From assembly GCA_024653485.1 (NCBI GenBank), contig JANLFY010000003.1, positions 112,686 to 176,685 on the forward strand: 64,000 nt of DNA. Reading direction: 5' to 3'. This stretch comes from Bacillota bacterium (GTDB lineage Bacteria > Bacillota > SHA-98 > UBA4971). A model generated the notes under the pieces. That model worked only from the letters and a program-made list of their open reading frames with translations. It was not told the DNA's origin and ran no database searches. Shown piece by piece: positions 3,071 to 18,072 of the stretch. The stretch's first letter is position 1. Each line of letters starts with the position of its first letter. Made by a program: the position numbers and the translations under genes.

Positions 3071-4455
3071 CTCTGGATGTCCTCCAGCACGCAGGCGACC
3101 ACGTCCGCAAGGAGGGTCGCCGCGCGCTCCGCTTCCTGTCTAGTGTTCTGCTCGCACCCGATCTCGAGGATGACTGCCCTGCTGTGGACGTGCTGGTTCC
3201 ACCTGGCGTCGTCCCGCACGTTGATCCCCCTTGAAAGTCCTGGGTACATCTCATCCATTTTCGCGTTGAGATAATACGCAAACGCCAGGTTTTCGCGCCA
3301 ATTCGGGTGGGGGAGTCCGAAGCGGTCCGTCGTGACCACTATGAACACTCTTGCGGCTTTCTGGCCGTCTATCTCCACTGTGGGCGACGCCGAGATCCCT
3401 GCGGTTCCGGCATCCCGGTGAACGTCGAATACCATCTCTATCGTGGGGTGTTCCTTCAGCACGGAGGAAACCGTCTCATGGGAGTTGATGTACGCCTCCC
3501 TCCACACCGGGTAGTCGTGGATCTTCCGCGAGTGGAGCACTGGGATGCCGTACTTCTCCGAAAGCGCCTTGGCGAGCTCCGCGCCCACAGAGATCACGCC
3601 TTCCTCGCTTCCCCACACGTGATCCGCTCCAGAAGTGAGCCTATATGCTTCCGAACTATGTGAGTGGTAGATGAACACCAGGGGCTTACTGCCCCATCCC
3701 CGCGTCTGGGCTCGCAGCCGCGTAGAGCCGCTTTGGTCCGACGGCAGCGGACGCGGAATCACGACGGCCGGCGGCGCAGGTTCTCGTTGCGGCAATGGCG
3801 CCTCGACCCCTCCCGGCGGATCCTCCGGCGTGGTCCCCTCATCTAGACGGCCGGGCTGTTCCCCGGCAGACGACTGTGTGGGGCTGACTGAGCCTCCCGT
3901 GGGCTCGCTCGTCGCAGTGCTCGCTGAGGGCCTCGCTGCAGGGAGGTACCCGGGAATGCCGACGGAAAGAAACGTCCTTGGGTCCTCGAGGTCCGCCGCG
4001 GAGAGCGTCAGCAACAGGGAGAGGAGGCGTGCAGGCATGGGTCCCGAAGACGTTCTCGTTTCTGTCATCCGGACCCGCGCGAACATGGGAATGGCGGTCT
4101 CAACGAGCCCGTAGGGAGCCATGAAGTCAACCGCGGCCCGGGCCTCTCGAACAAGCCTTCGCTCGCCTTCCACCAGGAATCCGCTGAAAGCAGGGAGGAT
4201 CCCTCCACGCCGCGAGCCAGTCCGGACCTCCAAGAGACCGGCCACACCCATGCCGAGGCCCACGAGGAGGACGGCCAAATAGACAAGCGCGGGCCCCCAC
4301 GGGTTCCTGACAGATTGGAACGGAGAACGGCTCCTGCGCGCGCCCCTGCGAATTCGCCAAGACCACCTGCGGCTCCCCCACACCCATCTCATGTCGACGT
4401 ACCTCCGGCCCGGCAACGGGGACCCTTGCCTGTCCAGTCGGCGGTGGGCGGACAT
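3067..4455 (-). CDS. spoIIP: Stage II sporulation protein P (SpoIIP), cell-wall amidase/peptidase
   Basis: C-terminal domain motifs VFIYHSHSSEAY, HDYPVWREAYINSHETV and VFDVHRD are typical of SpoIIP. The true start is probably an internal M, since the N-terminal ~70 aa of the ORF are R-rich. Located downstream of gpr as in Bacillus. Confidence 0.8.
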   Translation of the reverse strand: MSAHRRLDRQGSPLPGRRYVDMRWVWGSRRWSWRIRRGARRSRSPFQSVRNPWGPALVYLAVLLVGLGMGVAGLLEVRTGSRRGGILPAFSGFLVEGERRLVREARAAVDFMAPYGLVETAIPMFARVRMTETRTSSGPMPARLLSLLLTLSAADLEDPRTFLSVGIPGYLPAARPSASTATSEPTGGSVSPTQSSAGEQPGRLDEGTTPEDPPGGVEAPLPQREPAPPAVVIPRPLPSDQSGSTRLRAQTRGWGSKPLVFIYHSHSSEAYRLTSGADHVWGSEEGVISVGAELAKALSEKYGIPVLHSRKIHDYPVWREAYINSHETVSSVLKEHPTIEMVFDVHRDAGTAGISASPTVEIDGQKAARVFIVVTTDRFGLPHPNWRENLAFAYYLNAKMDEMYPGLSRGINVRDDARWNQHVHSRAVILEIGCEQNTRQEAERAATLLADVVACVLEDIQR

Positions 4456-5658: not shown

Positions 5659-6057
5659 TCACCGCTGCTTCGTTCCGTCCTCCTGCGGGCGAGCTGAATC
5701 CGTTGGTGGCGGCGATTCCACCTGCACCAGGAGATCGGTGAGCCCCACCACTGCTCCAGCGAGGAGAACGCCGCCCACGGGCACGGTCATCCCCGGAACG
5801 AAGAACTGCGTGAAATGGGCTGCCGCAGCGGTCGTCAGGAACCCCACGACCGCCCGACCTTCGTTTCGCAACCGGCGTGCGAAGAGGGTCTCCAAGACGT
5901 ACCCCGCGGCAGCGGCGCATGCGCCAGCCGGAATCGCGCCCGAAAACCCGCCCGCTGCAAAGCCCGGGATTACGTAACTCAGGCATAGGAGGGTGACCGT
6001 GCACGCGAGGAACCTCGCCGCGGCTCCGAACAACACTTCCTCTACCCCCGCACTCAC
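5659..6057 (-). CDS. Possible small hydrophobic membrane protein (hypothetical)
   Basis: 132-aa ORF with protein-like hydrophobic composition in the otherwise long (~640 nt) gpr–rpsT intergenic region. No recognisable family. Confidence 0.3.
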   Translation of the reverse strand: MSAGVEEVLFGAAARFLACTVTLLCLSYVIPGFAAGGFSGAIPAGACAAAAGYVLETLFARRLRNEGRAVVGFLTTAAAAHFTQFFVPGMTVPVGGVLLAGAVVGLTDLLVQVESPPPTDSARPQEDGTKQR

Positions 6058-6255
6058 GGTGCAAGGTGCGCCGGACTCCGTGGTCGTCGCTCGTGTCGTA
6101 TCTTTCCCGATGACGCGTCTTCGTATCCGCCGTGCGGCACCGTACCTGCGGCAAGTCCCACGTTTGCGTCACGTGATCGAGACGTGTTGCAGTCCCGGAC
6201 GGCTCATGGTAGAATTGGTTTCGTGATCGGCCAAGTCGCAAGGAGGTTGAGGTGT

Positions 6256-6534
6256 TTGCCTAACATCAAGTCGGCAGAGAAACGAGTGAAAACCACACGG
6301 GTGCGGACCCTGCGTAACGCCTCCGTGAAGAGCGCCCTGAAGACCGCGGTGAAGAAGTACGAGGCGCAGCTCGCCCAGGCAGATCGGCCGGCGGCCGAGG
6401 CTGCGCTGCGCAAGGCCATAAGCGCCATAGACAAGGCGGAGAAGAAAGGCGTCATTCACAAGAACCAGGCTGCCAGGCGGAAATCCCGCCTGACGAAGAG
6501 CCTGGCTTCACTTACCGGAGCGGCGGAAGCCTAG
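6256..6534 (+). CDS. rpsT: 30S ribosomal protein S20
   Basis: PNIKSAEKRVKTTRVRTLRNASVKSALKTAVKKYE... is typical S20. Probable TTG start at 6256 preceded by AGGAGG; the track ORF starts at an upstream in-frame GTG at 6184. Confidence 0.85.
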   Translation: MPNIKSAEKRVKTTRVRTLRNASVKSALKTAVKKYEAQLAQADRPAAEAALRKAISAIDKAEKKGVIHKNQAARRKSRLTKSLASLTGAAEA

Positions 6535-6715
6535 GCTCTCAGGCACCAACAAGCGGGGTGTCTTGACTAGACGGCCTGGAGGTTGTGCGAGGTCGCGCGT
6601 GTACGGTCGAGCGCTGGGCAGACCGATGCCCGTCAGAGGCACCGAGAGTGGGGGCTTTCGAGGTCTTCCCGGCGCATGGTCGGGTCCCTGAAGCATCAGT
6701 CCCGTGGGCGGCTCG

Positions 6716-7840
6716 TCACGTGGGCTGGCGGCTGGGAACGCTAGGCGCCCTTTCAGCGCACAGCCGGGCGATGAGTCCCTCGATCATCACTCCCTCGGGC
6801 GCGGAGGAGGTCTTGAGACCGACATCCGTCTCAGCAAGGACCTCGAAGGTGTCCTCCAGCTCTTCTCGTGTGAAGTTCCTTGCTTGCCCGACATACTTGC
6901 GCACCATTGAGTCCTGCAGGCGAGTGGCGTCGGCGATCCTCTTGAGAGGTGCGCCCTCCTCTAGCAGGATTCTCGTCCTCAAGATGAGGCGTATCTGTCG
7001 AGCCACCATGGATAGGATACGCGTCGAAGGCTCTCCGAAGCTGAGAAGTCGGCGTGCGGCTGCTATGGCCTTCGCCCCATCCTTCGCTCCCAAAGCGTCC
7101 ACGAGATCGAAAATGCCGAGGGCGGGCTCGCCCGCGGATGCCGCCATGACGTGCTCCAGCGTCACTTTCTGCTGTGGGCGGACGACAGCGCCTCTCGAGC
7201 TCGAGCTCTCAGGGGCTGCTACCCCCGCGTAGTTCCGAGCTTTCTCCATGGCTTCAGCGAGCCTCGCGGCGCTGGTTCCGATCGTCCGTACCAGATAGTC
7301 GCGAGCCTCACGGTCGAGATCGATCCCCTTGTCCCGCGCGTGCCTCGCGAGCCAGGACGCGGCCTCGTTATCGTACAGGGACCGATACCGCACGACCCTT
7401 CCGATCTCTGCGATGGCCCTGCACGCCGTCGTACGTTCGTCGACCGCTTCAGCGACAAGGATGACCACGCTCGTTCGAGGCATTCTGCGCAGAGCCTCCG
7501 CCAACGACTTCTGCTCGTCCGCTGAAAGCTCGTCAAATCCGCGAACCATGACCACGCGCCTCTCAGCAAACGCCGGCGGGGACAATACCGCGGCAACCAC
7601 GGACTCGAGATCTGCCTCGCGGGCCCGGAACACCACGTAATTGAAGTCACGCGTGTCGGGGGCGAGGCACGCGTCTGCAATGGTCCTCGCGGCCTCATCG
7701 CGGAGATACCCCTCTTCACCGTAGAGGAGGTAGACCGGTCTCAGCCTTCCAGACCTTACGTCGGCGGCCAGTTCCCCTGGTCCAGAAGCCACCCTGGAAT
7801 CACCCCGTTTCCATCTGCCCTCGGCCGCGCTGACCTCCAT
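6716..7840 (-). CDS. holA: DNA polymerase III delta subunit (HolA)
   Basis: 374-aa ORF with RPVYLLYGEEGYLRDEAARTIADACL... and the clamp-loader delta architecture. Divergent from rpsT as in B. subtilis. Confidence 0.8.
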   Translation of the reverse strand: MEVSAAEGRWKRGDSRVASGPGELAADVRSGRLRPVYLLYGEEGYLRDEAARTIADACLAPDTRDFNYVVFRAREADLESVVAAVLSPPAFAERRVVMVRGFDELSADEQKSLAEALRRMPRTSVVILVAEAVDERTTACRAIAEIGRVVRYRSLYDNEAASWLARHARDKGIDLDREARDYLVRTIGTSAARLAEAMEKARNYAGVAAPESSSSRGAVVRPQQKVTLEHVMAASAGEPALGIFDLVDALGAKDGAKAIAAARRLLSFGEPSTRILSMVARQIRLILRTRILLEEGAPLKRIADATRLQDSMVRKYVGQARNFTREELEDTFEVLAETDVGLKTSSAPEGVMIEGLIARLCAERAPSVPSRQPT

Positions 7841-7882
7841 AATGCCATCCGGTCGGTGGATCGTCGGTGGGTCGTCGGCGGA

Positions 7883-8767
7883 TCAGCTCTTCAGGCCAGT
7901 GCGCGCGATGCCTTGAATGAACTGCTTCTGCACGAAGAAGAACCCGATCACTACAGGCATTATAGCCATTGTGGATGCTGCCATCAACAGCGTGGGCACG
8001 GTCCCGTGTTCCTGCATGAACGTGGACAACCCCACCTGGATCGTGCGCATCTTGTCGGTGTTCGTCACGATGAGGGGCCATAGAAACGCGTTCCAACTCC
8101 CGATGAACGTGAACAGGCCGCACGTAATGAACACGGGCTTGGAAAGCGGGACTGTGACTCTCCAGAGGTACCCCAAGCGCGAGCATCCGTCTATCTGCGC
8201 CGCATCGTAAAGCTCTCTCGGGATGGTCTGGAAGAACTGCCGCATCAGGAATATGCCAAACACGCTCGCAAGCCACGGCACTATAAGGGCGTAATACGTG
8301 TCTATCCAGTCCAGCCTGAAGAGCAGAACATAGTTGGGGACGAGCGTCATCTGATCGGGGATCATCATGGTCCCCAAGAAGAGAGTGAAAATGACCTCTC
8401 GACCGAAGAAATCCATGGTCGCAAAGGCGTACGCGGCGAGCGCGGAGAACGTGAGCTGGCCGATTGTGGTGGCGGTCGCCACAAACGCGCTGTTGAGGAA
8501 GTACCTCGCGAAGGGCGCCTCGTTCCAGGCGTCCACGTAGTTCGACCACACGAGGCGCGACGGTATCCACCTGATGGGAACCGTGAATACTTCGCTGTAG
8601 TCCTTGAGCGACGTGGATATCATCCAGGCGAATGGGGCAAGCATCACAACCGAGCCTGCCAGGAGAAAAGCATGGATGGCGAAGGATCGTCCCAAGCGCA
8701 CGGCCGCGGCGCGTCTGTCACGTCGTGACCTCGTCCGACGCGGTTTCGTAGTCATGCTCGACCACAA
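7883..8767 (-). CDS. Carbohydrate ABC transporter permease (MalG/UgpE-like)
   Basis: Six-TM permease with the EAA-loop region (YDAAQIDGCSRLGYLWRVTVPL). Confidence 0.8.
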   Translation of the reverse strand: MWSSMTTKPRRTRSRRDRRAAAVRLGRSFAIHAFLLAGSVVMLAPFAWMISTSLKDYSEVFTVPIRWIPSRLVWSNYVDAWNEAPFARYFLNSAFVATATTIGQLTFSALAAYAFATMDFFGREVIFTLFLGTMMIPDQMTLVPNYVLLFRLDWIDTYYALIVPWLASVFGIFLMRQFFQTIPRELYDAAQIDGCSRLGYLWRVTVPLSKPVFITCGLFTFIGSWNAFLWPLIVTNTDKMRTIQVGLSTFMQEHGTVPTLLMAASTMAIMPVVIGFFFVQKQFIQGIARTGLKS

Positions 8768-8783
8768 TGGGCGTGTCCCCTCC

Positions 8784-9770
8784 TTACTGGTAGTGCACCC
8801 GTGAACCTATGTACTTGCGCTGAAGAAGCGTGAGAACGAAGATGATGACGAAAAGCGTGTAGGCCATGGCTGACGCGTACCCCATCTTGAAGTCCTCGAA
8901 CCCGATCTTGTACAGGTAGTACACCACTACGAGAGTGCTCTTCAGCGGCCCTCCTCTCGTCATTACGTATACTTGGCTGAACACCTGGAACGATCCAATG
9001 ACCGACACTATGAGCACGAAGAACGTTGTCGGCGACAGAAGGGGCCAGGTGATGTACCGGAACATCGACCAGCCTTTTGCCCCGTCTATCTGGGCCGCCT
9101 CATAGTACTCACTCGAAATGTTCTGAAGCCCCGCTAGGAATATCACGACGTTGTATCCGAGCCCCTTCCAGATGCTCATGAGGATGATGCACGGCATGGC
9201 CCACCTCGGATCAAGGAGCCACGATTGAATGGGAAGCCCAAGCCTATCAAGGAGGCCGTTCACGAGCCCGGAGTAATCAGGATGGTATATCCAGAACCAG
9301 ACTATGGCCACGGCATTCGCGGCGGTGACGACAGGCAGGAAATACACCGTGCGGTACCACGCGAGCCCTCTGATCTTCTGATTGAGCAGCACAGCCACGA
9401 ACAGCGCCACGGCCATGGACGTCGGGACAGTGCCCAAGACGTAGTACACCGTGTTCACCAGGGACGTCACGAAATCCGAGTCTCTCAGGAGGGCAGCGTA
9501 ATTCGCCAGACCCACGAACTCGGGGTTTGGGCTGATGTAATTCCACTCAAGAAGGCTAACGTAGAACGCGTAGATGACCGGCGCGAAATGGAACGCCACG
9601 AGCACCGCCGTGGCAGGCAGAAGGTACAGGTAAGCGACGAGGGTCTCCCTTAAGTATTTGCTGCGCCTGGCTGAGCCACGTGCCCCGGACCGTGAAACCT
9701 GCAATTGACAGCACCACCTTGATAAGAGTGACCGCCCATCTGGACGAGGTGTCACCGCGACTGGAGCCAA
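8784..9770 (-). CDS. Carbohydrate ABC transporter permease (MalF/UgpA-like)
   Basis: Permease with EAAQIDGAKGWSMFRYITWPLL motif. The start is probably internal, since the ORF's 5' end overlaps the upstream gene. Confidence 0.8.
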   Translation of the reverse strand: MAPVAVTPRPDGRSLLSRWCCQLQVSRSGARGSARRSKYLRETLVAYLYLLPATAVLVAFHFAPVIYAFYVSLLEWNYISPNPEFVGLANYAALLRDSDFVTSLVNTVYYVLGTVPTSMAVALFVAVLLNQKIRGLAWYRTVYFLPVVTAANAVAIVWFWIYHPDYSGLVNGLLDRLGLPIQSWLLDPRWAMPCIILMSIWKGLGYNVVIFLAGLQNISSEYYEAAQIDGAKGWSMFRYITWPLLSPTTFFVLIVSVIGSFQVFSQVYVMTRGGPLKSTLVVVYYLYKIGFEDFKMGYASAMAYTLFVIIFVLTLLQRKYIGSRVHYQ

Positions 9771-11956
9771 CGGACAAGCTTCAGCATGAACTCCTCGTTA
9801 CCCAGGCCCGGACGGAAGTCATACACTGAGTAGAGCGGCGCGCCCATCGCTACGACACACCCATCGCCGATCCGTTCCATCGCACACACCACCGGGCGTG
9901 TCTCATAAGCGTGCCATGGGCCCTTCCCGTTGGTGTCCACGTTCTTCGTTCCGTCGCTCCCCTCGAGGATGACCACCGGGCCGGAATGCCCAACAAGGCC
10001 GCCGAACGCTGCATCCACGACGGTGCACGCCTGCGACGCCTGGACCGGCAAGGATAGGGCCCCCAGGAGTTCCTCTCCGGCGCGCGCGAGCTCGCAGGTC
10101 ACGGACGAGCTCACCGTCGGCCCTTCGCACAGCCAGACTTCGTCGTCGGAAAACCTCATCGATGAGCCAAGCGAAGCGAGGATCGCGTTCAGTTGCGCCA
10201 CATCCCGCGACGGGTCGGACGCGTCGGACGAGCCCGCTAGGATTAGTGCTCCTCCCAGGGCGACGAAGCCTCGAATCGCTGCGATCTCGGACTCGTCAAA
10301 CGTCGAGGGGGTGAGAGAGATCCCGGGTTCGGGATTGGCCACGACAAGGACCGACGCCCCTCTCAGAGCCTCGGGGCAGATTCTCCCTTGGCTGAGCCTG
10401 CCCACTGAATCAGCGGTCGACAACGCCTCCAGAAACCTACCTGCGAAACCGCTCGAGCGGTTGTTGTGGCCCTCGTCCACGACGACCTCGCGAAGGTTCT
10501 CGGGCAGGACCTTCACGCGGGCTGAGTACACGTTGTCGCTGAGCCCCGGCCTAGCAGGGTCGACAAGCGTGGCCATCACCGTCACGTCCCCGCTCACCGG
10601 GCACGACCATTGGAGGGAGACGGGCACGGTTGCTCCGGGCTCGAGGTCGATCCTCATCGCCCCTATCGGCCATCGGCGTCCTCCCGCGCTCGCGGAGAAC
10701 TCGACTATCACGCCAACCAGCGGGTCTTTGCCCAGGTTCACGACGTCGCAGCGGAGATGGCCCCAAGTGCCTTTCTTGGCCATCGGCACATCGAACCGAA
10801 GGTCCACTGCGATGAGATCCGACTGGCTCTTGGCCCAGATGGGGCTCGTTACGACGAGATCGCCGTCGGACTGCTGGATCCGCGCGTAGTACCACGTGTA
10901 CCCCTGAGTCGGTTCCACCTCGAAAGTCCTTCTGAAGGGTCTGCCCGGGTCACCTTCTTCCCCGGACGCATCGAACGCCACAACGGTCACTCCGCCGTTG
11001 GACCTCACCTCCACCTTCTCAACAACGTCCCCGGGGTCTGGATCGCGCACCTCGATCTCCAGCTCCACCTTCCCCAGGGGTAGGATCTCCCCCATCCATT
11101 TCCCGTTCCCCGCAAAGCGCACCTGCACGTTCCGGTCCTCTGTGGAGTAGGTGCGGAGCGCGCGCAGCGCTTCCATGAGGCTCTCGTGGGTGAGGGCGCG
11201 CGCCACCACGCCCGTCCTCGTGTCGGCGGCGGTGCCCCAGTCTGCCCTGTGGTTGTCCTGGCTGTTCGTGGCCCCTACCTTCCAACCGCGGTCCAGGGCC
11301 CGGATGTAGGACCGTTCATAAAGCGTGTTCCTTGCGTACGGGCCCGAGCCGACCTCGAGCAGCCTTATCGTCCTATTGCCGGCCAGGGAGTACTGAAAGT
11401 CGTTCCACATGCCTTGCTCGTTCCATCCCGGATGATTGAACGTGGCGACGGCGCCCTTGCCCTCCATCCACGCTACGAGGTCTTCCAGGCCCCGCTGCGT
11501 GTCCCGCGAACACGGTTCCGGTGCTTCGATCACAGATATGTGCCCAGCGCCGTGGGTCCATTCGGTGCCTCGGAACGCCACGAACCTTCCCGGCTCCGTG
11601 AACCGCCAAGCCGTCTCAACGAGTGCCTCCCAATGGTGGGGATTCTCGACCATGTAGTACCCATGCTCCGTGATTCCGAGAAAATCGAGGCCGGCCACGT
11701 CTCTCGCGTGCGCGTACGCGTCCTCGGGCGTTAGCGCGCCGTCGGAGAACGAGGTGTGAGAGTGCAAGTACCCGAAATAGAAGCCCATCTCGACCTGCTG
11801 CGCGGAAGCGGGGCGGCACGTGATCAGGAGGGCGATGCAAAGAGGCGTGACGAGCGTCTGGATCAGCTTTTCCCCACGGTTCAAGGGGGCCCCTCCTTTC
11901 TCGGAAACGGGCGGGGCAAAGGTCCGGGGCCAGGATCCCCGCCTGCCCCGGACCAC
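9752..11956 (-). CDS. Secreted multidomain protein: N-terminal PHP/CehA-McbA family metallohydrolase domain, central CARDB-like region, C-terminal GldG/DUF4350-like domain
   Basis: Signal-peptide-like LIQTLVTPLCIALLITCRPASA, then the PHP motif GYLHSHTSFSDGALTPEDAYAHARD...LDFLGITEHG. 734 aa, embedded between the SBP and permease genes of the ABC operon. Confidence 0.6.
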   Translation of the reverse strand: MVRGRRGSWPRTFAPPVSEKGGAPLNRGEKLIQTLVTPLCIALLITCRPASAQQVEMGFYFGYLHSHTSFSDGALTPEDAYAHARDVAGLDFLGITEHGYYMVENPHHWEALVETAWRFTEPGRFVAFRGTEWTHGAGHISVIEAPEPCSRDTQRGLEDLVAWMEGKGAVATFNHPGWNEQGMWNDFQYSLAGNRTIRLLEVGSGPYARNTLYERSYIRALDRGWKVGATNSQDNHRADWGTAADTRTGVVARALTHESLMEALRALRTYSTEDRNVQVRFAGNGKWMGEILPLGKVELEIEVRDPDPGDVVEKVEVRSNGGVTVVAFDASGEEGDPGRPFRRTFEVEPTQGYTWYYARIQQSDGDLVVTSPIWAKSQSDLIAVDLRFDVPMAKKGTWGHLRCDVVNLGKDPLVGVIVEFSASAGGRRWPIGAMRIDLEPGATVPVSLQWSCPVSGDVTVMATLVDPARPGLSDNVYSARVKVLPENLREVVVDEGHNNRSSGFAGRFLEALSTADSVGRLSQGRICPEALRGASVLVVANPEPGISLTPSTFDESEIAAIRGFVALGGALILAGSSDASDPSRDVAQLNAILASLGSSMRFSDDEVWLCEGPTVSSSVTCELARAGEELLGALSLPVQASQACTVVDAAFGGLVGHSGPVVILEGSDGTKNVDTNGKGPWHAYETRPVVCAMERIGDGCVVAMGAPLYSVYDFRPGLGNEEFMLKLVRWLQSR

Positions 11957-11996
11957 ACGTCCGCGTCGTGCGCTGCACCCTCAGACGAAAACGGAT

Positions 11997-13337
11997 CTAC
12001 CTGGCAAGGATGGCGTCCACTTTCTGTGCAGCCTTATCAAGCGCCTGCTTGGGAGAGGCTTTGAGAAGGAACGCTTCCTCCACGGCCTGGCTGATGACCT
12101 CGCGGATCTCCTGCCACTCCGCTATGTTGGGGTCAGTGACAGCGAACTTGAGTGCGTTGAGGCTGGCAGCGTTCCTTGGGTTGGCAGCCATCCACTCCTG
12201 CATTTGACGTAGATAGAGCGCCGACCTCCTCACAGGAATGTAACCCGTCTTGACAGCCCAATACGCGGTCTGGGTGGGGCTGGTCAGCCACTTCATGAAT
12301 TTCCACGCGGCCTGTTGCTCTTCGGGCGTGGCGGCAGCAAACATCACCAGGTCGGTGCCGGCTACAGGAGCGGCGGGCCGCTTCTTGTATGGTATGGGCC
12401 CTATGCCCCACTCGAACTTCGCGCCTACCGCGCTGTCAGTGTACGAGTAGCTGGCCGACGTGGCGAAGTATCCGCACGTCTTGCCGGCGCCGAAGTCCGC
12501 GTCTGCGTAACCGGGGATGTAGTACGCCACTTTGTGCTTGTGGAGCATGTCGACCATGAACTGGAGCGCTTCGACGCCTTCCGGCGAGTTGAACACGGCC
12601 TTCCTGCCGCTCTCGTCCAGATAGCGCCCGCCATTCGTGAACAGCAGGTTGGCGAAGTAGTCGACGTTCGGTCTGAGCACCATTCCGTAGCGAACGGTCT
12701 TCCCGTCTTTGACGACTGTCGTGGCCTTGCAGGCGGCCAAGAGCTCTTCCCACGTGCTGGGAGCCTTGAGACCGGACTCCTTCAGGGCGCTAAGGTTGTA
12801 GATATAGATGGCGACGCTCTTGTTGAACGGAAGAGTGTACATCTTTCCGTTGAACGTGCAGCCTACGCGCAGCTCAGGCCAGAAGTCCTCGATTTCGTCC
12901 TTCGAAAGCCCGCCCGACCCAGCAAAGAAGTCCTCAACAGGCTTCACTGCTCCGGATTTCACGTATTCCGCCACCCAGTTCCCGTACGCCTGCGCCACCG
13001 TCGGAGGCTTCTTCGCCGCTAGAGAGGCCATGATCTTTTGGCTCAGCGCTGAATAGCTGCCCTGATATTCTGCTTTTACGACTATCCCAGGGTTCTGTTT
13101 CTGGAATTGAGCGACCAGCTCGTCGAGGGTCTTTCCCAGAGCCGATCCCATTCCATGCCAAAACGTTATCGTGACCTTCGTATCTGCAGACACGGCACAG
13201 AATCCCGAGAGAACCATGACAAGAAGGCCCAGGCTCAGGATGACGACTATCGCTCGCTTCAACCGGTTCTCCTGACGTTGCACGACGCGAAGCGCGAACG
13301 TCAGGATTCCCCCCCCTTCATGCTGAATTCGGACCAT
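11997..13337 (-). CDS. ABC transporter extracellular solute-binding protein (sugar family 1)
   Basis: 446-aa ORF with N-terminal TM/lipobox-like segment and SBP_bac_1-like composition (TFWHGMGSALGKTLDELVAQFQKQNPGIVVKAEYQGSY). Confidence 0.75.
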   Translation of the reverse strand: MVRIQHEGGGILTFALRVVQRQENRLKRAIVVILSLGLLVMVLSGFCAVSADTKVTITFWHGMGSALGKTLDELVAQFQKQNPGIVVKAEYQGSYSALSQKIMASLAAKKPPTVAQAYGNWVAEYVKSGAVKPVEDFFAGSGGLSKDEIEDFWPELRVGCTFNGKMYTLPFNKSVAIYIYNLSALKESGLKAPSTWEELLAACKATTVVKDGKTVRYGMVLRPNVDYFANLLFTNGGRYLDESGRKAVFNSPEGVEALQFMVDMLHKHKVAYYIPGYADADFGAGKTCGYFATSASYSYTDSAVGAKFEWGIGPIPYKKRPAAPVAGTDLVMFAAATPEEQQAAWKFMKWLTSPTQTAYWAVKTGYIPVRRSALYLRQMQEWMAANPRNAASLNALKFAVTDPNIAEWQEIREVISQAVEEAFLLKASPKQALDKAAQKVDAILAR

Positions 13338-13561
13338 CCGGCGCTCGTCTCGTCGCCCGTGCGTTCAGACACCACCCATCCCCCAAGATCAAGAGAGGCT
13401 TCGGGCGCCCGCTCACCTCCCTCCGCCGGCCGCGTTCCGCCCTGCGACAGACAGCGCCTCCTCGAAACGCCTTCGACCGTGACCCGGGTCTTTAGGCACT
13501 ATGTGCCTCTCTACCTACCTTAAATCCATTCTCCCAGAATGGGACGTCTCCTTCCTGTCTT

Positions 13562-16039
13562 TCACAATCCCCGCATGGCGCGGACACTAGCCCGACCGCC
13601 TAGTCCCGTGGCGGTCACCGCCCCGTTCAGATCCGTGCGAAACGTTTTCGCGCCCGCTCGAGACAACGCCTGTAAGGTGCTTGGTGCGGGATGACCAAAT
13701 GTGTTTGGGCCTACGGGCACCACTGCCCAGTCGGGGGACACCGCGTCGAGGAGTTCGGGCGGACACCCACCGGCTGCGCCGTGGTGGGGGACCTTCAAGA
13801 TGTCCGCGTCAATATCGAACCCCTCCTGCACGAGCGAGGAAAGAGCGATGGGCCCTGCGTCTCCCGTAAGCAGGGCCCGCGTGTTCCGAAACCTCACCAT
13901 CATGACCAGGGAGAAATCGTTGAGGTCCTGTGAAGTCTGCGACGCGCACCCACGGGGCGGACCGAGGAAGTCTATTCTAGCGCCGTCTCCAAGGTCGATA
14001 TGGCCACCACGCACTGCCTCCACGACGACGACCCCTCTCTCGCGCGCGAGGTCCGTCAGCCGCCTATCCAAGTCGGGCCTCACGTTATCTGGAATGGGAG
14101 GTTTTACGAGGACTTTCACATGGAGGCGTCGGATCACTCCAAGGAGACCGCCGATGTGGTCCTGGTGGGGATGGGTGGCGACCACTACATCAAGTTGTCT
14201 CACGCCGCGCCTAAGCAGGTAAGGCACGACCACGTCGTCACCCGCATCGCGTTGCGGTCCGAGGGCACCTCCCGCGTCTACCAAGACCGTCCTGCCCGAA
14301 GGGCTCCGAATGAAACTGGCGTCACCCTGTCCGACCGAGAGGAAAACCAGCTCAAGAGGGGTAGTGCGCAGGGCAGCGATCCACACGACTGTTGCCGCGG
14401 CGCCGAGCGCTAGCACCGCGAGGGCCCGACGTCGCGCCCAAAGCGCTCGTTGCGCCTCTCGCGGCGCGCCTGTGGCGAGCAGCACGGAGTAGAAAGCGAG
14501 GACCACCCATAGCGGGGGCTTGGGCACAGGGAAACAGGCCCAAGGAAGCCGTGCCGTTGCGTGAAGCCACCACTCCAACGCCGCAAGAGCCAAGCTGTTC
14601 CCCGCGTTCAGCACCACAGCGAGGGGAAACCACACGAGCCCAGCGAGACCAGCCGCAAGTCCTGTCAGCACGGCCATGCTTGCGAGCGTGAGGGCAGGAA
14701 CGGACGCAATGACACCGACCAATGAGACCGTTCCGAAGTACCAAACGCCGAGCGGGACCACGCCGATTTGGGCTGCCAACGAGGTCGCGAGCGGATCCCC
14801 AAGCCAGCTCGGGAGCTTTCCGAGAGCCCTTCTCAGGCGCGGCGAGAGGGTCAGGATGCTGAGAACTGCGCAAAAGGACATCTGGGCACCGGGATCGAAT
14901 GCAAGCAGAGGATTCCGGCCGAGTGTGAGGATACCTGCCAAGTACAAGGCTCCCTGAATGGCTGTGCGGCGACGCAAGAGAACCGCGAAGCCTGCGCACG
15001 ACAGCATCACGGACGCTCGCATCACAGCAGGTCTCATCCCGCAGGCGGCTGCGTACGCCCAGCTGCCCGCGAGCGCCGGGGCCAAGGCCCATGGACCGCG
15101 GAGCCCGAGACCGGCCAGCAGGCTCCAAAGGAAGGTCGTTACCAGCCCAACGTGCAGGCCAGACACGGAAAAGAGATGGGAGGTGCCGGTGGCCTCGAGC
15201 ACCTCTTGCATCTCTTCCGGAGCTCTCCCGAAGAGCATGCCTGAGACGAGCTCTGCGTGTCGCTGGGAAAGGGTAGCCTTTGCGACGCGCATGACACGAC
15301 CTCGAAACCACGAGGCAAGCGAGGCAGTCGTGGCTCCCATCCCGGGTTTGGAACGCAGACGGATGTCCTTGGGGCTGCGGACGTACATCGTTCCCGCAGC
15401 TCCCTGACATCGAAGAATGATCCTCATGTCAGGTTCCCCTGGGTTCGCTGGCTGCTGCGGAAGGTAAAGCCGTCCCCGCGCCTCGATCCTCGCGCCAGGC
15501 ACTAGCCCCACCTCGCGCCCGTCGCTGACGTCCGGAAGACCGCCGGCGTCCACAGAGAGGACGACTCGTGCCCCGGACACCGCCGAGTCTCCATCCACCG
15601 AGGCGATCCTCAGAATTCCCTTCCAGCGGCCTCCAGGGCCTGCCTCCGGCACACCCAAGACCACGCCCTCAGCCGCGACCCTCGGCGCTTGAGCGTGCCT
15701 CTCCAGAGCCCGCTCGCACGGCCAGGGCGACAAAGCCACGTGCATGGACACCGCGCCGCCGAGCAGGATGAAACTCCAGATGGCGAGGGCTTTCGGCCCC
15801 GACTCACGCGGCAAGCAGCGCCGCGCCCGTTTTGACCCCAGCCAGAGCCACCAGATGGCCGCCGTCCCAAGCAAAGCTCCAGGGGCAAGGAATGAGACGC
15901 GTCCCCACGCCTTCGTCATGGCCCCGCTCAACGCGAAAAGGAGGAACGCGCTTTGAAGGACTCCGTTCGTCGGCACGCTCATGCGCCTCCACAGGACTCC
16001 TCCGCTCCGGCCTCGCAGATCGGCCGGCGGCCTCCCCAA
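13562..16039 (-). CDS. comEC: DNA internalization competence protein ComEC/Rec2 (with C-terminal metallo-beta-lactamase domain)
   Basis: 825-aa polytopic membrane protein. C-terminal MBL motif VVATHPHQDHIGGL and competence domain. Located downstream of comEA. Confidence 0.8.
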   Translation of the reverse strand: MGRPPADLRGRSGGVLWRRMSVPTNGVLQSAFLLFALSGAMTKAWGRVSFLAPGALLGTAAIWWLWLGSKRARRCLPRESGPKALAIWSFILLGGAVSMHVALSPWPCERALERHAQAPRVAAEGVVLGVPEAGPGGRWKGILRIASVDGDSAVSGARVVLSVDAGGLPDVSDGREVGLVPGARIEARGRLYLPQQPANPGEPDMRIILRCQGAAGTMYVRSPKDIRLRSKPGMGATTASLASWFRGRVMRVAKATLSQRHAELVSGMLFGRAPEEMQEVLEATGTSHLFSVSGLHVGLVTTFLWSLLAGLGLRGPWALAPALAGSWAYAAACGMRPAVMRASVMLSCAGFAVLLRRRTAIQGALYLAGILTLGRNPLLAFDPGAQMSFCAVLSILTLSPRLRRALGKLPSWLGDPLATSLAAQIGVVPLGVWYFGTVSLVGVIASVPALTLASMAVLTGLAAGLAGLVWFPLAVVLNAGNSLALAALEWWLHATARLPWACFPVPKPPLWVVLAFYSVLLATGAPREAQRALWARRRALAVLALGAAATVVWIAALRTTPLELVFLSVGQGDASFIRSPSGRTVLVDAGGALGPQRDAGDDVVVPYLLRRGVRQLDVVVATHPHQDHIGGLLGVIRRLHVKVLVKPPIPDNVRPDLDRRLTDLARERGVVVVEAVRGGHIDLGDGARIDFLGPPRGCASQTSQDLNDFSLVMMVRFRNTRALLTGDAGPIALSSLVQEGFDIDADILKVPHHGAAGGCPPELLDAVSPDWAVVPVGPNTFGHPAPSTLQALSRAGAKTFRTDLNGAVTATGLGGRASVRAMRGL

Positions 16040-16215
16040 TTAGGCGGCCGCACCTCGGTCAACAGCCAGCTATCTCAGTTCTCGCGGGAGGCGCGGATCA
16101 GCTCCACCCAAGGATGAAGGCTGACGAGCGAGCCGCCCTCTTCCCGCCCGGCATTCGTAGACGTATGCGACCGCCCTGTCACGCGACCGCGCGGCCGTCC
16201 GCCACGAGTCGTGAG

Positions 16216-16896
16216 CTAGTACACTGTGATGAGGTCTTTCAACGCCTCGAACTTTGCCTGGCCTATTCCCGGCACGTCCGTGAGTTGCTCGGGGTTCTCG
16301 AACCGGCCGTTGGCGCCACGGTAGTCGATGATTCTGCGGGCAAGGGTTGGCCCGATGCCAGGCAGCGACTCGAGCTCCGCGAGGCCGGCGGTGTTGATGT
16401 TGACTCGGCTATAGACCGCCTCGGCCATGCGAGAAGGCTCCGCGCAGGCCCCTTCGAAACCTGACCCGGGGCCGGGCCCGGCTCCGGGCTCGGTCTTTGG
16501 CCTAGTCGGTATGTACACCTGCGAAGAGTCGGACAGTACCTTTGCCATGTTCACTTGCTCCGGCCACGCCCCCGCCGCAAGGCCACCCGCAAGCCTGACT
16601 GCGTCCGCCACCCGGGATCCAGAGGGAAGCGTGTATACTCCCGGCGACGCCACCGCCCCGCATACGTGCACGGTCACCGCGCTTTTGGCCTGCACGTCCG
16701 TCGCGGGCTCACCTTTGCCGGCTCCGTCCCTCTCAGCCGCCTCGGCCCGCTCGCCGCCCGCTGGCTCGCTCGGCCCAGGAGCCACCACAACGTCTCCCAA
16801 GGTCATTTGCCTCGCGACCAGCACGACTCCCCCGACGCCGAACATTACGAGCAACACCACCATCACGAGCCTCTGTCGCCGCGAGAGGTCGAACAT
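16216..16896 (-). CDS. comEA: Competence protein ComEA (helix-hairpin-helix DNA-binding)
   Basis: C-terminal tandem HhH (VNINTAGLAELESLPGIGPTLARRIIDYR...LTDVPGIGQAKFEALKDLI) with N-terminal TM. Start taken at the internal M (MFDLS...). Confidence 0.8.
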   Translation of the reverse strand: MFDLSRRQRLVMVVLLVMFGVGGVVLVARQMTLGDVVVAPGPSEPAGGERAEAAERDGAGKGEPATDVQAKSAVTVHVCGAVASPGVYTLPSGSRVADAVRLAGGLAAGAWPEQVNMAKVLSDSSQVYIPTRPKTEPGAGPGPGSGFEGACAEPSRMAEAVYSRVNINTAGLAELESLPGIGPTLARRIIDYRGANGRFENPEQLTDVPGIGQAKFEALKDLITVY

Positions 16897-17115
16897 GACT
16901 CCACCTCCCTTGCCTATCTCCGATCGCGCCATACAGGTTCAACGCCGGACCGTACACTCCTGTTGAGCTGGGCTAGCCTGTAGAGACGGTTTCTGGTGAT
17001 ATCGCGGGTGAGTCCATAGAAGGGAACACCCCCCGTTCTCACGGACGGGGGGTGTCTTGCGAGCCTCGCCTGACTCTGCTGCCAAATCAGAGCACGTCAG
17101 TATGAAGGCGAAAAA

Positions 17116-17191
17116 TGGTGGAGACGATGGGAATCGAACCCACGACCTCGTGAATGCCATTCACGCGCTCTCCCAACTGAGCTACGTCCCC
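17116..17191 (-). tRNA. tRNA-Ala (anticodon GGC)
   Basis: Minus-strand 76-nt sequence GGGGACGTAGCTCAGTTGGGAGAGCGCGTGAATGGCATTCACGAGGTCGTGGGTTCGATTCCCATCGTCTCCACCA folds as a cloverleaf. G3:U70 alanine identity pair, anticodon loop AUGGCAU, TΨC loop TTCGATT, encoded CCA. Confidence 0.9.
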
Positions 17192-17260
17192 AGATAGATG
17201 TTCGCGTATTCGATTGCGTCCCTTGGTTCACTGCGATTATAGCAGACCCTCCTGGGCAAG

Positions 17261-17674
17261 TCAAGGCCTACGAGCCTCCCGAGGCTCGGCACGGTCGTCG
17301 CGTGAGCAGCCTTCCTCCGGCACGGCGTCCACGAGCGAGGTTCCCACTACTCTTGCGCCACGGTACAGCCGTTCTAGATCGTAATACTCTCTCTCTTTGG
17401 AATGGAACACGTGGACCACGGTGTCGGCGTAATCCAGGATCACCCAGCCGCCTTCGACGGTCCCTTCCTTGTGCTGAGGAAGCACACCTCGTTCCTTGAG
17501 CTCTTGAAGTATGGCGTCGCAGATGGCCTTCAGCTGCGTTCTCGATGTCCCGCCCGCTATGACGAAGTAATCGGCTATTATCGTGAGATCACGGACATCC
17601 AGCACCAGCACGTCCAGGGCTTTCTTGCCCTCCGCAGCAGCACGCGCTATCTCGGCAATGGCCAGTGGGTCTAT
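17261..17674 (-). CDS. rsfS: Ribosomal silencing factor RsfS (Iojap)
   Basis: LDVLVLDVRDLTIIADYFVIAGGTSRTQLKAI... aligns with RsfS. The conserved N-terminus (PLAIAEIARAAAEGKKALD) continues upstream of the track's GTG with no canonical start. The only RBS-backed candidate is ATA at 17674 with GGAGG 8 nt upstream. Confidence 0.6.
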   Translation of the reverse strand: MDPLAIAEIARAAAEGKKALDVLVLDVRDLTIIADYFVIAGGTSRTQLKAICDAILQELKERGVLPQHKEGTVEGGWVILDYADTVVHVFHSKEREYYDLERLYRGARVVGTSLVDAVPEEGCSRDDRAEPREARRP

Positions 17675-17814: not shown

Positions 17815-18072
17815 TCAGTACCTTGCCTGCCGAGGCCTGGCCTCGTTGACTATGATCTGCCTTCCACCGATGTCCGCGCCGTTCATCGCGGCCACAACGC
17901 GCTCCACGTCCTCGTCGTCGACCTCCACGAACCCGAATCCACGCGACCTACCCGTCTCTCTGTCGGTAATCACCCTACTGCCCTTGACCTCCGCCACCGC
18001 CCTGAACGCCTCGGCCAAGTCTTCCTCAGTCAGTGCCCAGGGCAGGTTCCCCACATACAGGGTTTTCGTCAC
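17815..18072 (-). CDS. RRM-type RNA-binding protein (glycine-poor, ~85 aa)
   Basis: VTKTLYVGNLPWALTEEDLAEAFRAVAEVKGSRVITDRETGRSRGFGFVEVDD shows RNP-2 (LYVGNL) and RNP-1 (RGFGFVEV) motifs. GTG start at 18072 with GGAGGTGG RBS. The upstream part of the track ORF is R/S/G-rich non-coding leader. Confidence 0.8.
   Translation of the reverse strand: MTKTLYVGNLPWALTEEDLAEAFRAVAEVKGSRVITDRETGRSRGFGFVEVDDEDVERVVAAMNGADIGGRQIIVNEARPRQARY

Follow-up and report, generated by a model that had tools for sequence, protein, structure and literature searches.

A comEC-linked gene cassette of an uncultured Bacillota lineage, a candidate system for scavenging nucleic acids or related phosphodiesters

What would a bacterium take up through an ABC importer whose genes enclose a secreted, metallohydrolase-like protein and stand among its DNA-uptake genes? 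This question is raised by a four-gene cassette in a stretch of DNA (64,000 nucleotides, hereafter the window; positions 112,686 to 176,685 of contig JANLFY010000003.1, GenBank assembly GCA_024653485.1) from an uncultured, high-G+C lineage of the Bacillota. The cassette forms a unit within the comE (DNA-uptake) block and encodes a substrate-binding protein (SBP), a secreted protein of the PHP (CehA/McbA) family, and two permeases. An original prediction, made by a model from the letters of the stretch, had described a sugar-type importer operon with a 734-aa PHP protein between its SBP and permease genes and no ATPase gene. The positions and order of these open reading frames (ORFs) were reproduced, all on the minus strand and, as had been proposed, between comEC (16039..13562) and holA (7840..6716). 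The missing ATPase was also borne out, as no ORF combining a Walker A motif with LSGGQ was found across the whole 64-kb window. The genes are real and not chance ORFs, given 40 near-full-length homologues of the PHP protein and a four-gene order repeated in dozens of contigs. We propose, at about even confidence, that the cassette is an extracellular or periplasmic system for scavenging nucleic acids or closely related phosphodiesters; the nature of the substrate and of the products, the ATPase that would drive uptake, and a joint transcription with comE are all inferred.

The longest ORF for the PHP protein (11956..9752) would give the 734 aa first reported, but a TTG at 11884, with the ribosome-binding site (RBS) GAAAGGAGGGG ahead of it, is the most likely start. 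The resulting product of 710 aa (11884..9752) matches the public gene call. No Pfam family was matched by the 734-aa protein at E ≤ 0.01, nor was any PHROGs family. The NCBIfam model NF038032 (CehA/McbA metallohydrolase), which describes a domain and is not an equivalog, was passed with 119.3 bits against a cutoff of 80 (aa 58-375, model positions 1-314 of 315). In an alignment of 31 near-full-length homologues (32-78% identity), every sequence has an N-terminal signal peptide. Nine PHP metal ligands (H41, H43, D48, H74, E108, H115, H151, D210, and H212 in the 710-aa numbering) are invariant, as is the C-terminal DEGHNNR motif of the GIFT/GldG-like domain. Judged by these residues, the predicted trinuclear metal site of the PHP domain is intact.

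An AlphaFold2 model of the 710-aa protein, built on the same alignment (mean pLDDT, the per-residue confidence score, 88), predicts a signal peptide (residues 1-30), a PHP barrel (34-250), an Ig-like beta-sandwich (254-352), a CARDB-like beta-sandwich (357-460), and an alpha/beta GIFT/GldG-like domain (466-710). The PHP domain has the distorted (beta/alpha)7 barrel fold of its family, and the C-terminal domain has a GATase1-like fold that matches the N-terminal domain of IFT52 and places it among the GIFT domains. IFT52 (1.3e-5) and 3E38 (6.6e-5) were also returned by a profile search of PDB sequences, while a Foldseek search of the PDB gave mostly generic Ig-barrel matches (RbmA, transglutaminases) that were functionally uninformative. 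Domain search and structure prediction thus agree with what had been described from sequence, a secreted protein of the PHP/CehA family that includes CARDB-like and GldG/DUF4350-like segments. Beyond the family-level CehA/McbA name, no homology to a characterized glycosidase or esterase with a known substrate was found. PHP is the sole catalytic domain, and no homology to Endonuclease I, EEP/ExeM, NucA/NucB, or SNase was detected with Pfam. The protein was compared with the PHP structures TM0559 (2ANU), BVU_3505 (3E38), EndoQ (5ZB8), and RNase AM (9ETK), and with the CehA/McbA carbaryl hydrolases. Unlike those PHP phosphoesterases, it is exported and carries two Ig-like domains in addition to the GIFT/GldG-like domain. 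This last domain differs from the GIFT domains of GldG, IFT52, and OST48 in being fused to a hydrolase and in carrying a family-wide D-x-x-H-x-N motif, which reads DEGHNNR in the cassette clade.

Substrate and function of the PHP protein had been called unclear; the company that its PHP-GIFT module keeps elsewhere narrows the function toward nucleic-acid catabolism. A scan of 185,579 species-representative genomes yielded at least 345 PHP-GIFT relatives, including some from gut Lachnospiraceae, Oscillospiraceae, Thermotogae, and Caldiserica. More remote matches over the full length (28-31% identity) sit within surface proteins of 1,450-2,560 aa encoded by Caloranaerobacter, Sutcliffiella, Fusibacter, Caldiserica, Coprothermobacterota, Lachnospiraceae, and Oscillospiraceae. 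According to Pfam, the PHP-CARDB-GIFT arrangement is joined in Caloranaerobacter to BOF/OB, DUF5689, and RPA3-like OB domains (three OB-type domains) and to SLH repeats, in Sutcliffiella to LTD, DUF5689, Metallophos plus 5'-nucleotidase, and LPXTG, and in Caldisericales to LTD. A 2,040-aa protein of an uncultured Fusibacter sp. (locus L042, 7295-13417) combines LTD, Endonuclease I, DUF5689/OB, PHP, CARDB, GIFT, OB, and dockerin domains.

The flanking segments of 26 of these giant proteins matched 34 Pfam families. Among the 25 most frequent families, which are those considered here, OB nucleic-acid-binding domains were found in 15 segments, DUF5689 in 11, and LTD in 5; the extra catalytic domains were limited to Endonuclease I and 5'-nucleotidase, with none of a glycosidase type. 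A YxQDxTGGI motif, which coincides with the DUF5689/OB matches, is present in 24 of the 26 proteins; 20 of these have a copy immediately behind the GIFT domain, about 730-770 residues past the HxH motif. The DUF5689 domain is that of DdbD, which is encoded in a Bacteroides DNA-utilization locus and is predicted to be the DNA-binding partner of the transporter there; a Riemerella protein on which natural transformation depends contains it as well (bioRxiv 10.1101/2025.03.18.642099; PMC8459023). Like the Bacteroides ddbABCDEF and Riemerella loci, the cassette would pair a secreted nuclease, here a predicted one, with a dedicated transporter and has an evolutionary tie to DNA uptake, and DUF5689 is fused to the PHP-GIFT module in relatives of the cassette protein. 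Unlike in the ddb locus, the nuclease families are different and the 710-aa protein does not contain DUF5689. In DNA stable-isotope probing, Fusibacteraceae were strongly labeled by DNA, yet no known extracellular nuclease was found in them (PMC8289736); surface proteins of the L042 type could be these missing nucleases.

The transporter genes point in a similar direction. The SBP (13337..11997) matches SBP_bac_8 at 2.5e-46, with a second match of the SBP_bac_1/SBP_bac_8 type at 1e-37, and falls into cluster D of the CUT1 superfamily. BPD_transp_1 was found in both permeases, which are of the MalF/MalG type: permease 1 (UgpA/MalF-type; 9770..8784) at 2.9e-19 and permease 2 (UgpE/MalG-type; 8767..7883) at 9.2e-16. 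In NCBIfam, the best matches were UgpB for the SBP (145.5 bits, 1.8e-42), UgpA for permease 1 (144.2 bits, 7.5e-42), and UgpE for permease 2 (153.7 bits, 7.8e-45), all below the equivalog cutoffs of 411, 335, and 297 bits. The permeases rank GlcT/GlcU second and MalF/MalG third, and MalE, MalF, and MalG reach 46, 77, and 76 bits on the same three parts. The transporter therefore belongs to the CUT1 superfamily but probably lies outside its sugar branch, so the term sugar-type holds at the level of the superfamily and not below it.

The closest solved relatives of the SBP are Thermus thermophilus entries (7C0F/7C14 and others, E about 1e-60), followed by E. coli UgpB (1e-37) and the glycerophosphocholine (GPC)-binding UgpB of M. 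tuberculosis (7e-30). Entry 7C0F is the binding protein (U3GBP) for U3G, uridylyl-3'-5'-phosphoguanosine (PMC12718374, main text and SI Table S5), and its report is given there as Chandravanshi et al., FEBS J 2021. In UgpB and in the GPC- and U3G-binders, but not in glucose binders, a set of two Tyr and two Ser that coordinates the phosphate is conserved (PMC12718374). We aligned the window SBP with 17 cassette SBPs, three Thermotogae SBPs, U3GBP, and E. coli UgpB (loci L002, L014, and L041 were left out). Identity of the window SBP is 35% to U3GBP over the full length and 27% to E. coli UgpB. Y95, S174, S294, and Y366 (window numbering), the predicted phosphate binders, align with the phosphate-coordinating residues of both reference proteins and are conserved, together with G327 and R412, throughout the SBPs of the cassette clade. 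Comparison with U3GBP point variants in the PDB indicated that the window SBP retains the Ser (NKS), Thr-Ser, and Tyr positions and has Ala (A326) in place of a pocket Gln; five further variants, compared by score, scored below the wild type against the window SBP, a hint that their positions may be conserved as well. The SBP thus appears to share with U3GBP the UgpB-related organophosphate branch of CUT1, and the Ugp scores, the relation to 7C0F, and the conserved Tyr/Ser set point to an organophosphate or phosphodiester as the predicted ligand.

All cassette SBPs have AxA-type signal peptides, and none has a lipobox Cys. As translation from the annotated ATG of the window SBP would read through a conserved RBS, a GTG or TTG about 20-25 codons further inside the ORF is probably the actual start. 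The signal peptides suggest that these SBPs are located in the periplasm of a diderm, Limnochordia-like host. One cassette-bearing metagenome-assembled genome (MAG) is assigned to Limnochordia, a diderm group whose uncultured members originate mainly from digesters and muds (PMC11456536). SBPs that do not possess a lipobox, here those of the window and of loci L005-L037, are unusual for single-membraned Bacillota.

The same four genes recur well beyond the window. Six contigs with homologues of 35-67% identity all have the order comEA-comEC-SBP-PHP-permease-permease-holA-rpsT, including contigs that do not carry gpr and spoIIP. When the window proteins were mapped by tblastn onto 79 loci from the genome scan, 24 species representatives were of the cassette type. 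The context comparison revealed the same order beside comEC and/or holA in all but one of them, a 3.5-kb contig (L027). The comEC gene is directly upstream in 21 of the 24, one more has comEA and a split comEC, and metagenome contigs agree; comEA precedes comEC in nearly all cassette loci, and holA was detected downstream in 18. Identity to the window is 47-74% for ComEC of near relatives and 26-33% for that of distant ones. The corresponding values across the cassette loci are 20-75% (HolA), 50-89% (SBP), and 33-78% (PHP protein). By these identities, and by its identical slot in divergent genomes, the cassette is old and more conserved than the neighboring genes.

It had been taken for a lineage-specific insertion, which understates its age, as the slot is the same where HolA and ComEC are only 20-33% identical; the unit is also found outside the comE context. 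A recent horizontal insertion is ruled out by a G+C content of 57-65%, close to that of the flanks, and by the same slot in very divergent genomes. In a Limnochordaceae MAG (L034), the cassette lies away from comEC between guaA and a hisS/hisZ-like gene, and three Thermotogae loci (L062, L076, and L080) have the order permease-permease-SBP-PHP outside the comE context. These exceptions argue that the four genes are the functional unit and that linkage to comE characterizes a single deep lineage. Widespread as the operon is, no defined function is attached to it. In one long-read assembly (contig_28352; loci L013/L032), each of four genes (comEC, holA, lepA, and the PHP gene) is broken up or truncated, most likely through frameshift errors rather than as pseudogenes.

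A phosphodiester substrate, most likely one derived from nucleic acid, is favored by an exported enzyme with a predicted intact trinuclear site, by an SBP with a phosphate signature that is closest to the only known dinucleotide-binding SBP, by an enzyme-SBP linkage that recurs in unrelated phyla, and by the DNA-binding, nuclease, and nucleotidase domains to which the enzyme module is fused. In the scavenging system that we propose, the Sec-exported PHP protein would be a trinuclear-metal phosphoesterase acting outside the cytoplasmic membrane. It would degrade DNA, RNA, or oligonucleotides to short phosphate-bearing fragments such as dinucleotides and nucleotides. The UgpB/U3GBP-like SBP would capture these fragments through its Tyr/Ser phosphate-binding set, and the UgpA/UgpE-like permeases would import them, powered by a shared ATPase of the MsmX/UgpC type encoded elsewhere in the genome. 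In the lineage of the window, the unit stands between comEC and holA, with its place beside comEC kept across deep divergence, and it would probably be expressed in part, at least, together with the DNA-uptake genes.

Several observations weigh against this proposal. The CehA/McbA family consists of carbamate hydrolases and not of nucleases, and the functions given to the PHP-GIFT family and to the cassette SBP are predictions. The two closest PHP structures are those of uncharacterized proteins, and no report of a PHP extracellular nuclease was found in the literature. The 710-aa protein itself does not contain OB or DUF5689 domains, and its link to DNA passes through module homology of 28-31% identity. 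Carbohydrate-associated accessory modules are frequent in the giant relatives (CHB_HEX_C_1 in 18 segments, F5_F8_type_C in 7). The SBP, at only 35% identity to U3GBP, differs from it at two pocket positions (Gln to A326, and Glu to Gly at the position of UgpB E66). The Thermus U3GBP operon comprises permease, permease, and SBP only, whereas the cassette adds a hydrolase and competence neighbors; it is also uncertain whether U3G binding has a physiological meaning in Thermus. Finally, the adjacency of comEC and holA is ancient in Bacillota, as the gene orders of Bacillus and Clostridium attest, and the persistent position of the cassette between them may be historical rather than functional.

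The position itself can be read in two ways. According to the first, the cassette was inserted once between comEC and holA and was retained because the comEC-holA block seldom breaks up, with no link to competence, while it works as a system for scavenging nucleic acids or Ugp substrates. We consider such an evolutionary accident evenly balanced. It agrees with the cassettes that stand between guaA and the hisS/hisZ-like gene or on their own in Thermotogae, and with what is generally known of Bacillus, where the comEC-holA-rpsT synteny is conserved regardless of function. It also agrees with the leader between comEC and the SBP gene (13561..13338, minus strand, 224 nt), whose conserved -10-like element suggests that the cassette has a promoter of its own. 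In the subclade of the window this leader measures 224-312 nt, and an alignment of nine close loci revealed conserved blocks: a -10-like TAGAAT (TAGAGA in the window, at 13513..13508), a GGAGGTGAGCG block, and an RBS, GAAAGGGGGGATTCCCTG, that is able to form a small hairpin. The leader may be a promoter plus a regulatory leader, and the conserved -10-like element makes an internal cassette promoter plausible in this subclade.

No known riboswitch precedes the SBP gene, as an Rfam search of positions 6000-17600 at E ≤ 1 matched only the tRNA-Ala region. An RNA element in the leader is not claimed, RNAalifold having given -7 kcal/mol and no covariation. A promoter-like site on the minus strand (7987..7959; TTGATG, 17-nt spacer, TATAAT) lies inside the 3' end of the permease 2 gene, about 120 nt before the start of holA, and could let this essential gene be expressed independently of the cassette.

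The second way of reading the position is a functional coupling to competence, which we hold only tentatively, the balance of probability being against it. Among relatives, 41 to 312 nt separate comEC from the SBP gene, and 4 to 80 nt separate permease 2 from holA. In subclades other than that of the window, these gaps are 41-104 nt and 4-18 nt, which leaves little room for independent control and counts against an accidental position, as does the absence, among the genomes of the clade that were compared, of any in which the cassette has left comEC. No convincing terminator was found in a scan of the cassette region.

The fuller form of this coupling, in which the cassette belongs to the DNA-uptake machinery of a probably diderm Bacillota lineage and trims and recovers DNA fragments, is in our judgment doubtful. 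The C-terminal nuclease of ComEC is thought to degrade the non-transforming strand (PMC8579336). ComEC would thread one strand into the cell and degrade the other; trimming of that discarded strand, or of excess DNA, would fall to the PHP-GIFT enzyme in the periplasm, and the U3GBP-like ABC importer would recover the phosphorylated fragments. A fragment importer beside ComEC would make physiological sense, especially in a periplasm. The ancient comEC-holA block and the cassettes that exist elsewhere without comE speak against such a coupling.

A different substrate is the next alternative to our proposal of nucleic-acid scavenging. The cassette could scavenge glycerophosphodiesters or teichoic acids in the manner of the Ugp system, with the secreted PHP enzyme in the role of UgpQ, GlpQ, or PhoD. 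Glycerol-3-phosphate (G3P) or glycerophosphodiesters released from phospholipid head groups or wall polymers would then be imported as a phosphorus source. UgpB, UgpA, and UgpE are the best families for all three parts of the transporter, the E. coli and M. tuberculosis UgpB proteins are the second and third best solved relatives of the SBP, and the phosphate-binding Tyr/Ser residues are common to both systems. Moreover, E. coli ugpBAECQ likewise pairs a phosphodiesterase gene with transporter genes, as the cassette is predicted to do. However, the equivalog cutoffs are missed widely (145 vs 411, 144 vs 335, and 154 vs 297 bits), and the cassette does not include ugpC. Trp169 and Trp172, which form a G3P-specific clamp in E. 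coli UgpB, and Glu66 (mature numbering, 4AQ4 literature) hold the glycerol moiety; the clamp is absent from the cassette SBPs, and the E66 position is occupied by Gly. The closest solved relative of the SBP binds a dinucleotide and not G3P, and the fusion partners of the PHP-GIFT module are DNA-binding, nuclease, and nucleotidase domains that do not resemble GlpQ. The hydrolases also differ: that of the cassette is an exported PHP multidomain protein encoded between the SBP and the permeases, whereas UgpQ is a cytoplasmic protein of the GDPD family. We therefore judge this alternative unlikely.

Less probable again, and by a clear step, is an ordinary CUT1 oligosaccharide importer that is served by a shared MsmX ATPase and assisted by the PHP-GIFT protein as an accessory glycan-modifying esterase or phosphatase, which would, for example, strip phosphate or acyl groups from a polysaccharide. 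The CUT1 architecture of the cassette (SBP_bac_1/8, two BPD_transp_1 permeases, no ATPase) is what such an importer would have. CHB_HEX_C_1, F5_F8_type_C, and Fn3_assoc are all frequent in the giant relatives, and GATase1/GIFT-like domains are also found in GH42 and other glycosidases. Yet the cassette contains no glycoside hydrolase catalytic domain, nor do the 25 listed families of the giant relatives include one. The sugar-binding SBP families score far below the organophosphate binders, and the phosphate-coordinating residues reported as absent from glucose binders (PMC12718374) are present in the cassette SBP. A carbamate or ester hydrolase of the CehA/McbA type, acting on a xenobiotic or natural ester whose alcohol or acid product is imported, would account for the NCBIfam CehA_McbA_metalo match (119 bits vs 80) and for the CehA/McbA name given publicly to homologues, but it is highly improbable, as the model is of domain level, the cassette keeps a housekeeping position by comEC across 24 species-level genomes unlike catabolic xenobiotic genes, the predicted SBP ligand carries a phosphate, and the fusion partners are related to DNA.

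The genes around the cassette are those of a DNA-uptake block. The tRNA-Ala gene, comEA, comEC, and holA are all on the minus strand. The 825-aa ComEC ORF comprises a DUF4131 OB domain (1.2e-16), the Competence channel (1.9e-51), and a metallo-beta-lactamase nuclease domain (Lactamase_B, 1.5e-15) with an intact HPHQDH motif. The public comEC gene call on the same contig is only 576 aa long and drops the N-terminal OB (DUF4131) domain. Upstream are comEA (16932..16216), which encodes a DNA receptor with SLBB and HHH_3 domains according to the Pfam families of the public gene call of locus L001, and just ahead of it a tRNA-Ala(GGC) gene (17191..17116). The strongest sigma-70-like site of the region (17236-17264; TTGACT, 17-nt spacer, TATAAT, extended TG) precedes this tRNA gene, and an Rfam run at a permissive threshold tagged the tRNA-Ala region as a sub-threshold tmRNA match. 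On the other side, holA (DNA polymerase III delta; DNA_pol3_delta_C 3.5e-25, DNA_pol3_delta 1.4e-13) starts 42 nt past permease 2, and beyond it lie rpsT, on the opposite strand, gpr, and spoIIP.

Farther away, an 85-aa protein with RRM_1, a eukaryote-type RNA-recognition motif, is encoded between nadD and rsfS at about 17815-18072 (minus strand; 3813-4070 in locus L001) and relatives L002 and L005 keep it in the same position. Positions 37334-62216 encode Rnf components (RnfC, ApbE), a HydABC-type electron-bifurcating [FeFe]-hydrogenase, a second [FeFe]-hydrogenase-like protein, and a Mur-ligase/CbiA fusion. The window elsewhere is made up of housekeeping and anaerobic energy metabolism genes (RNase G, PBP2, Rnf, and the HydABC-type hydrogenase). 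These genes point to an anaerobic, fermentative lifestyle.

It is generally accepted that extracellular nucleic acid is cut to nucleotides and dephosphorylated before uptake (e.g., PMC8289736). If our proposal is correct, the cassette would provide a direct, ATP-driven route for phosphate-bearing nucleic-acid fragments. Besides the accepted route, the only other way of entry is, to our knowledge, that of single-stranded DNA through ComEC. The orphan dinucleotide binding of the Thermus SBP would gain a physiological context, and the widespread exported PHP-GIFT module would be assigned to extracellular DNA and RNA turnover. The question of competence as nutrition would also become directly testable, as a DNA-uptake operon and a candidate importer are physically joined across a deep lineage. 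Were the cassette in addition coupled to DNA uptake, natural competence would have a third, nutritional output, served by a new family of exported PHP nucleases and by the first oligonucleotide/dinucleotide ABC importer with an assigned physiological role.

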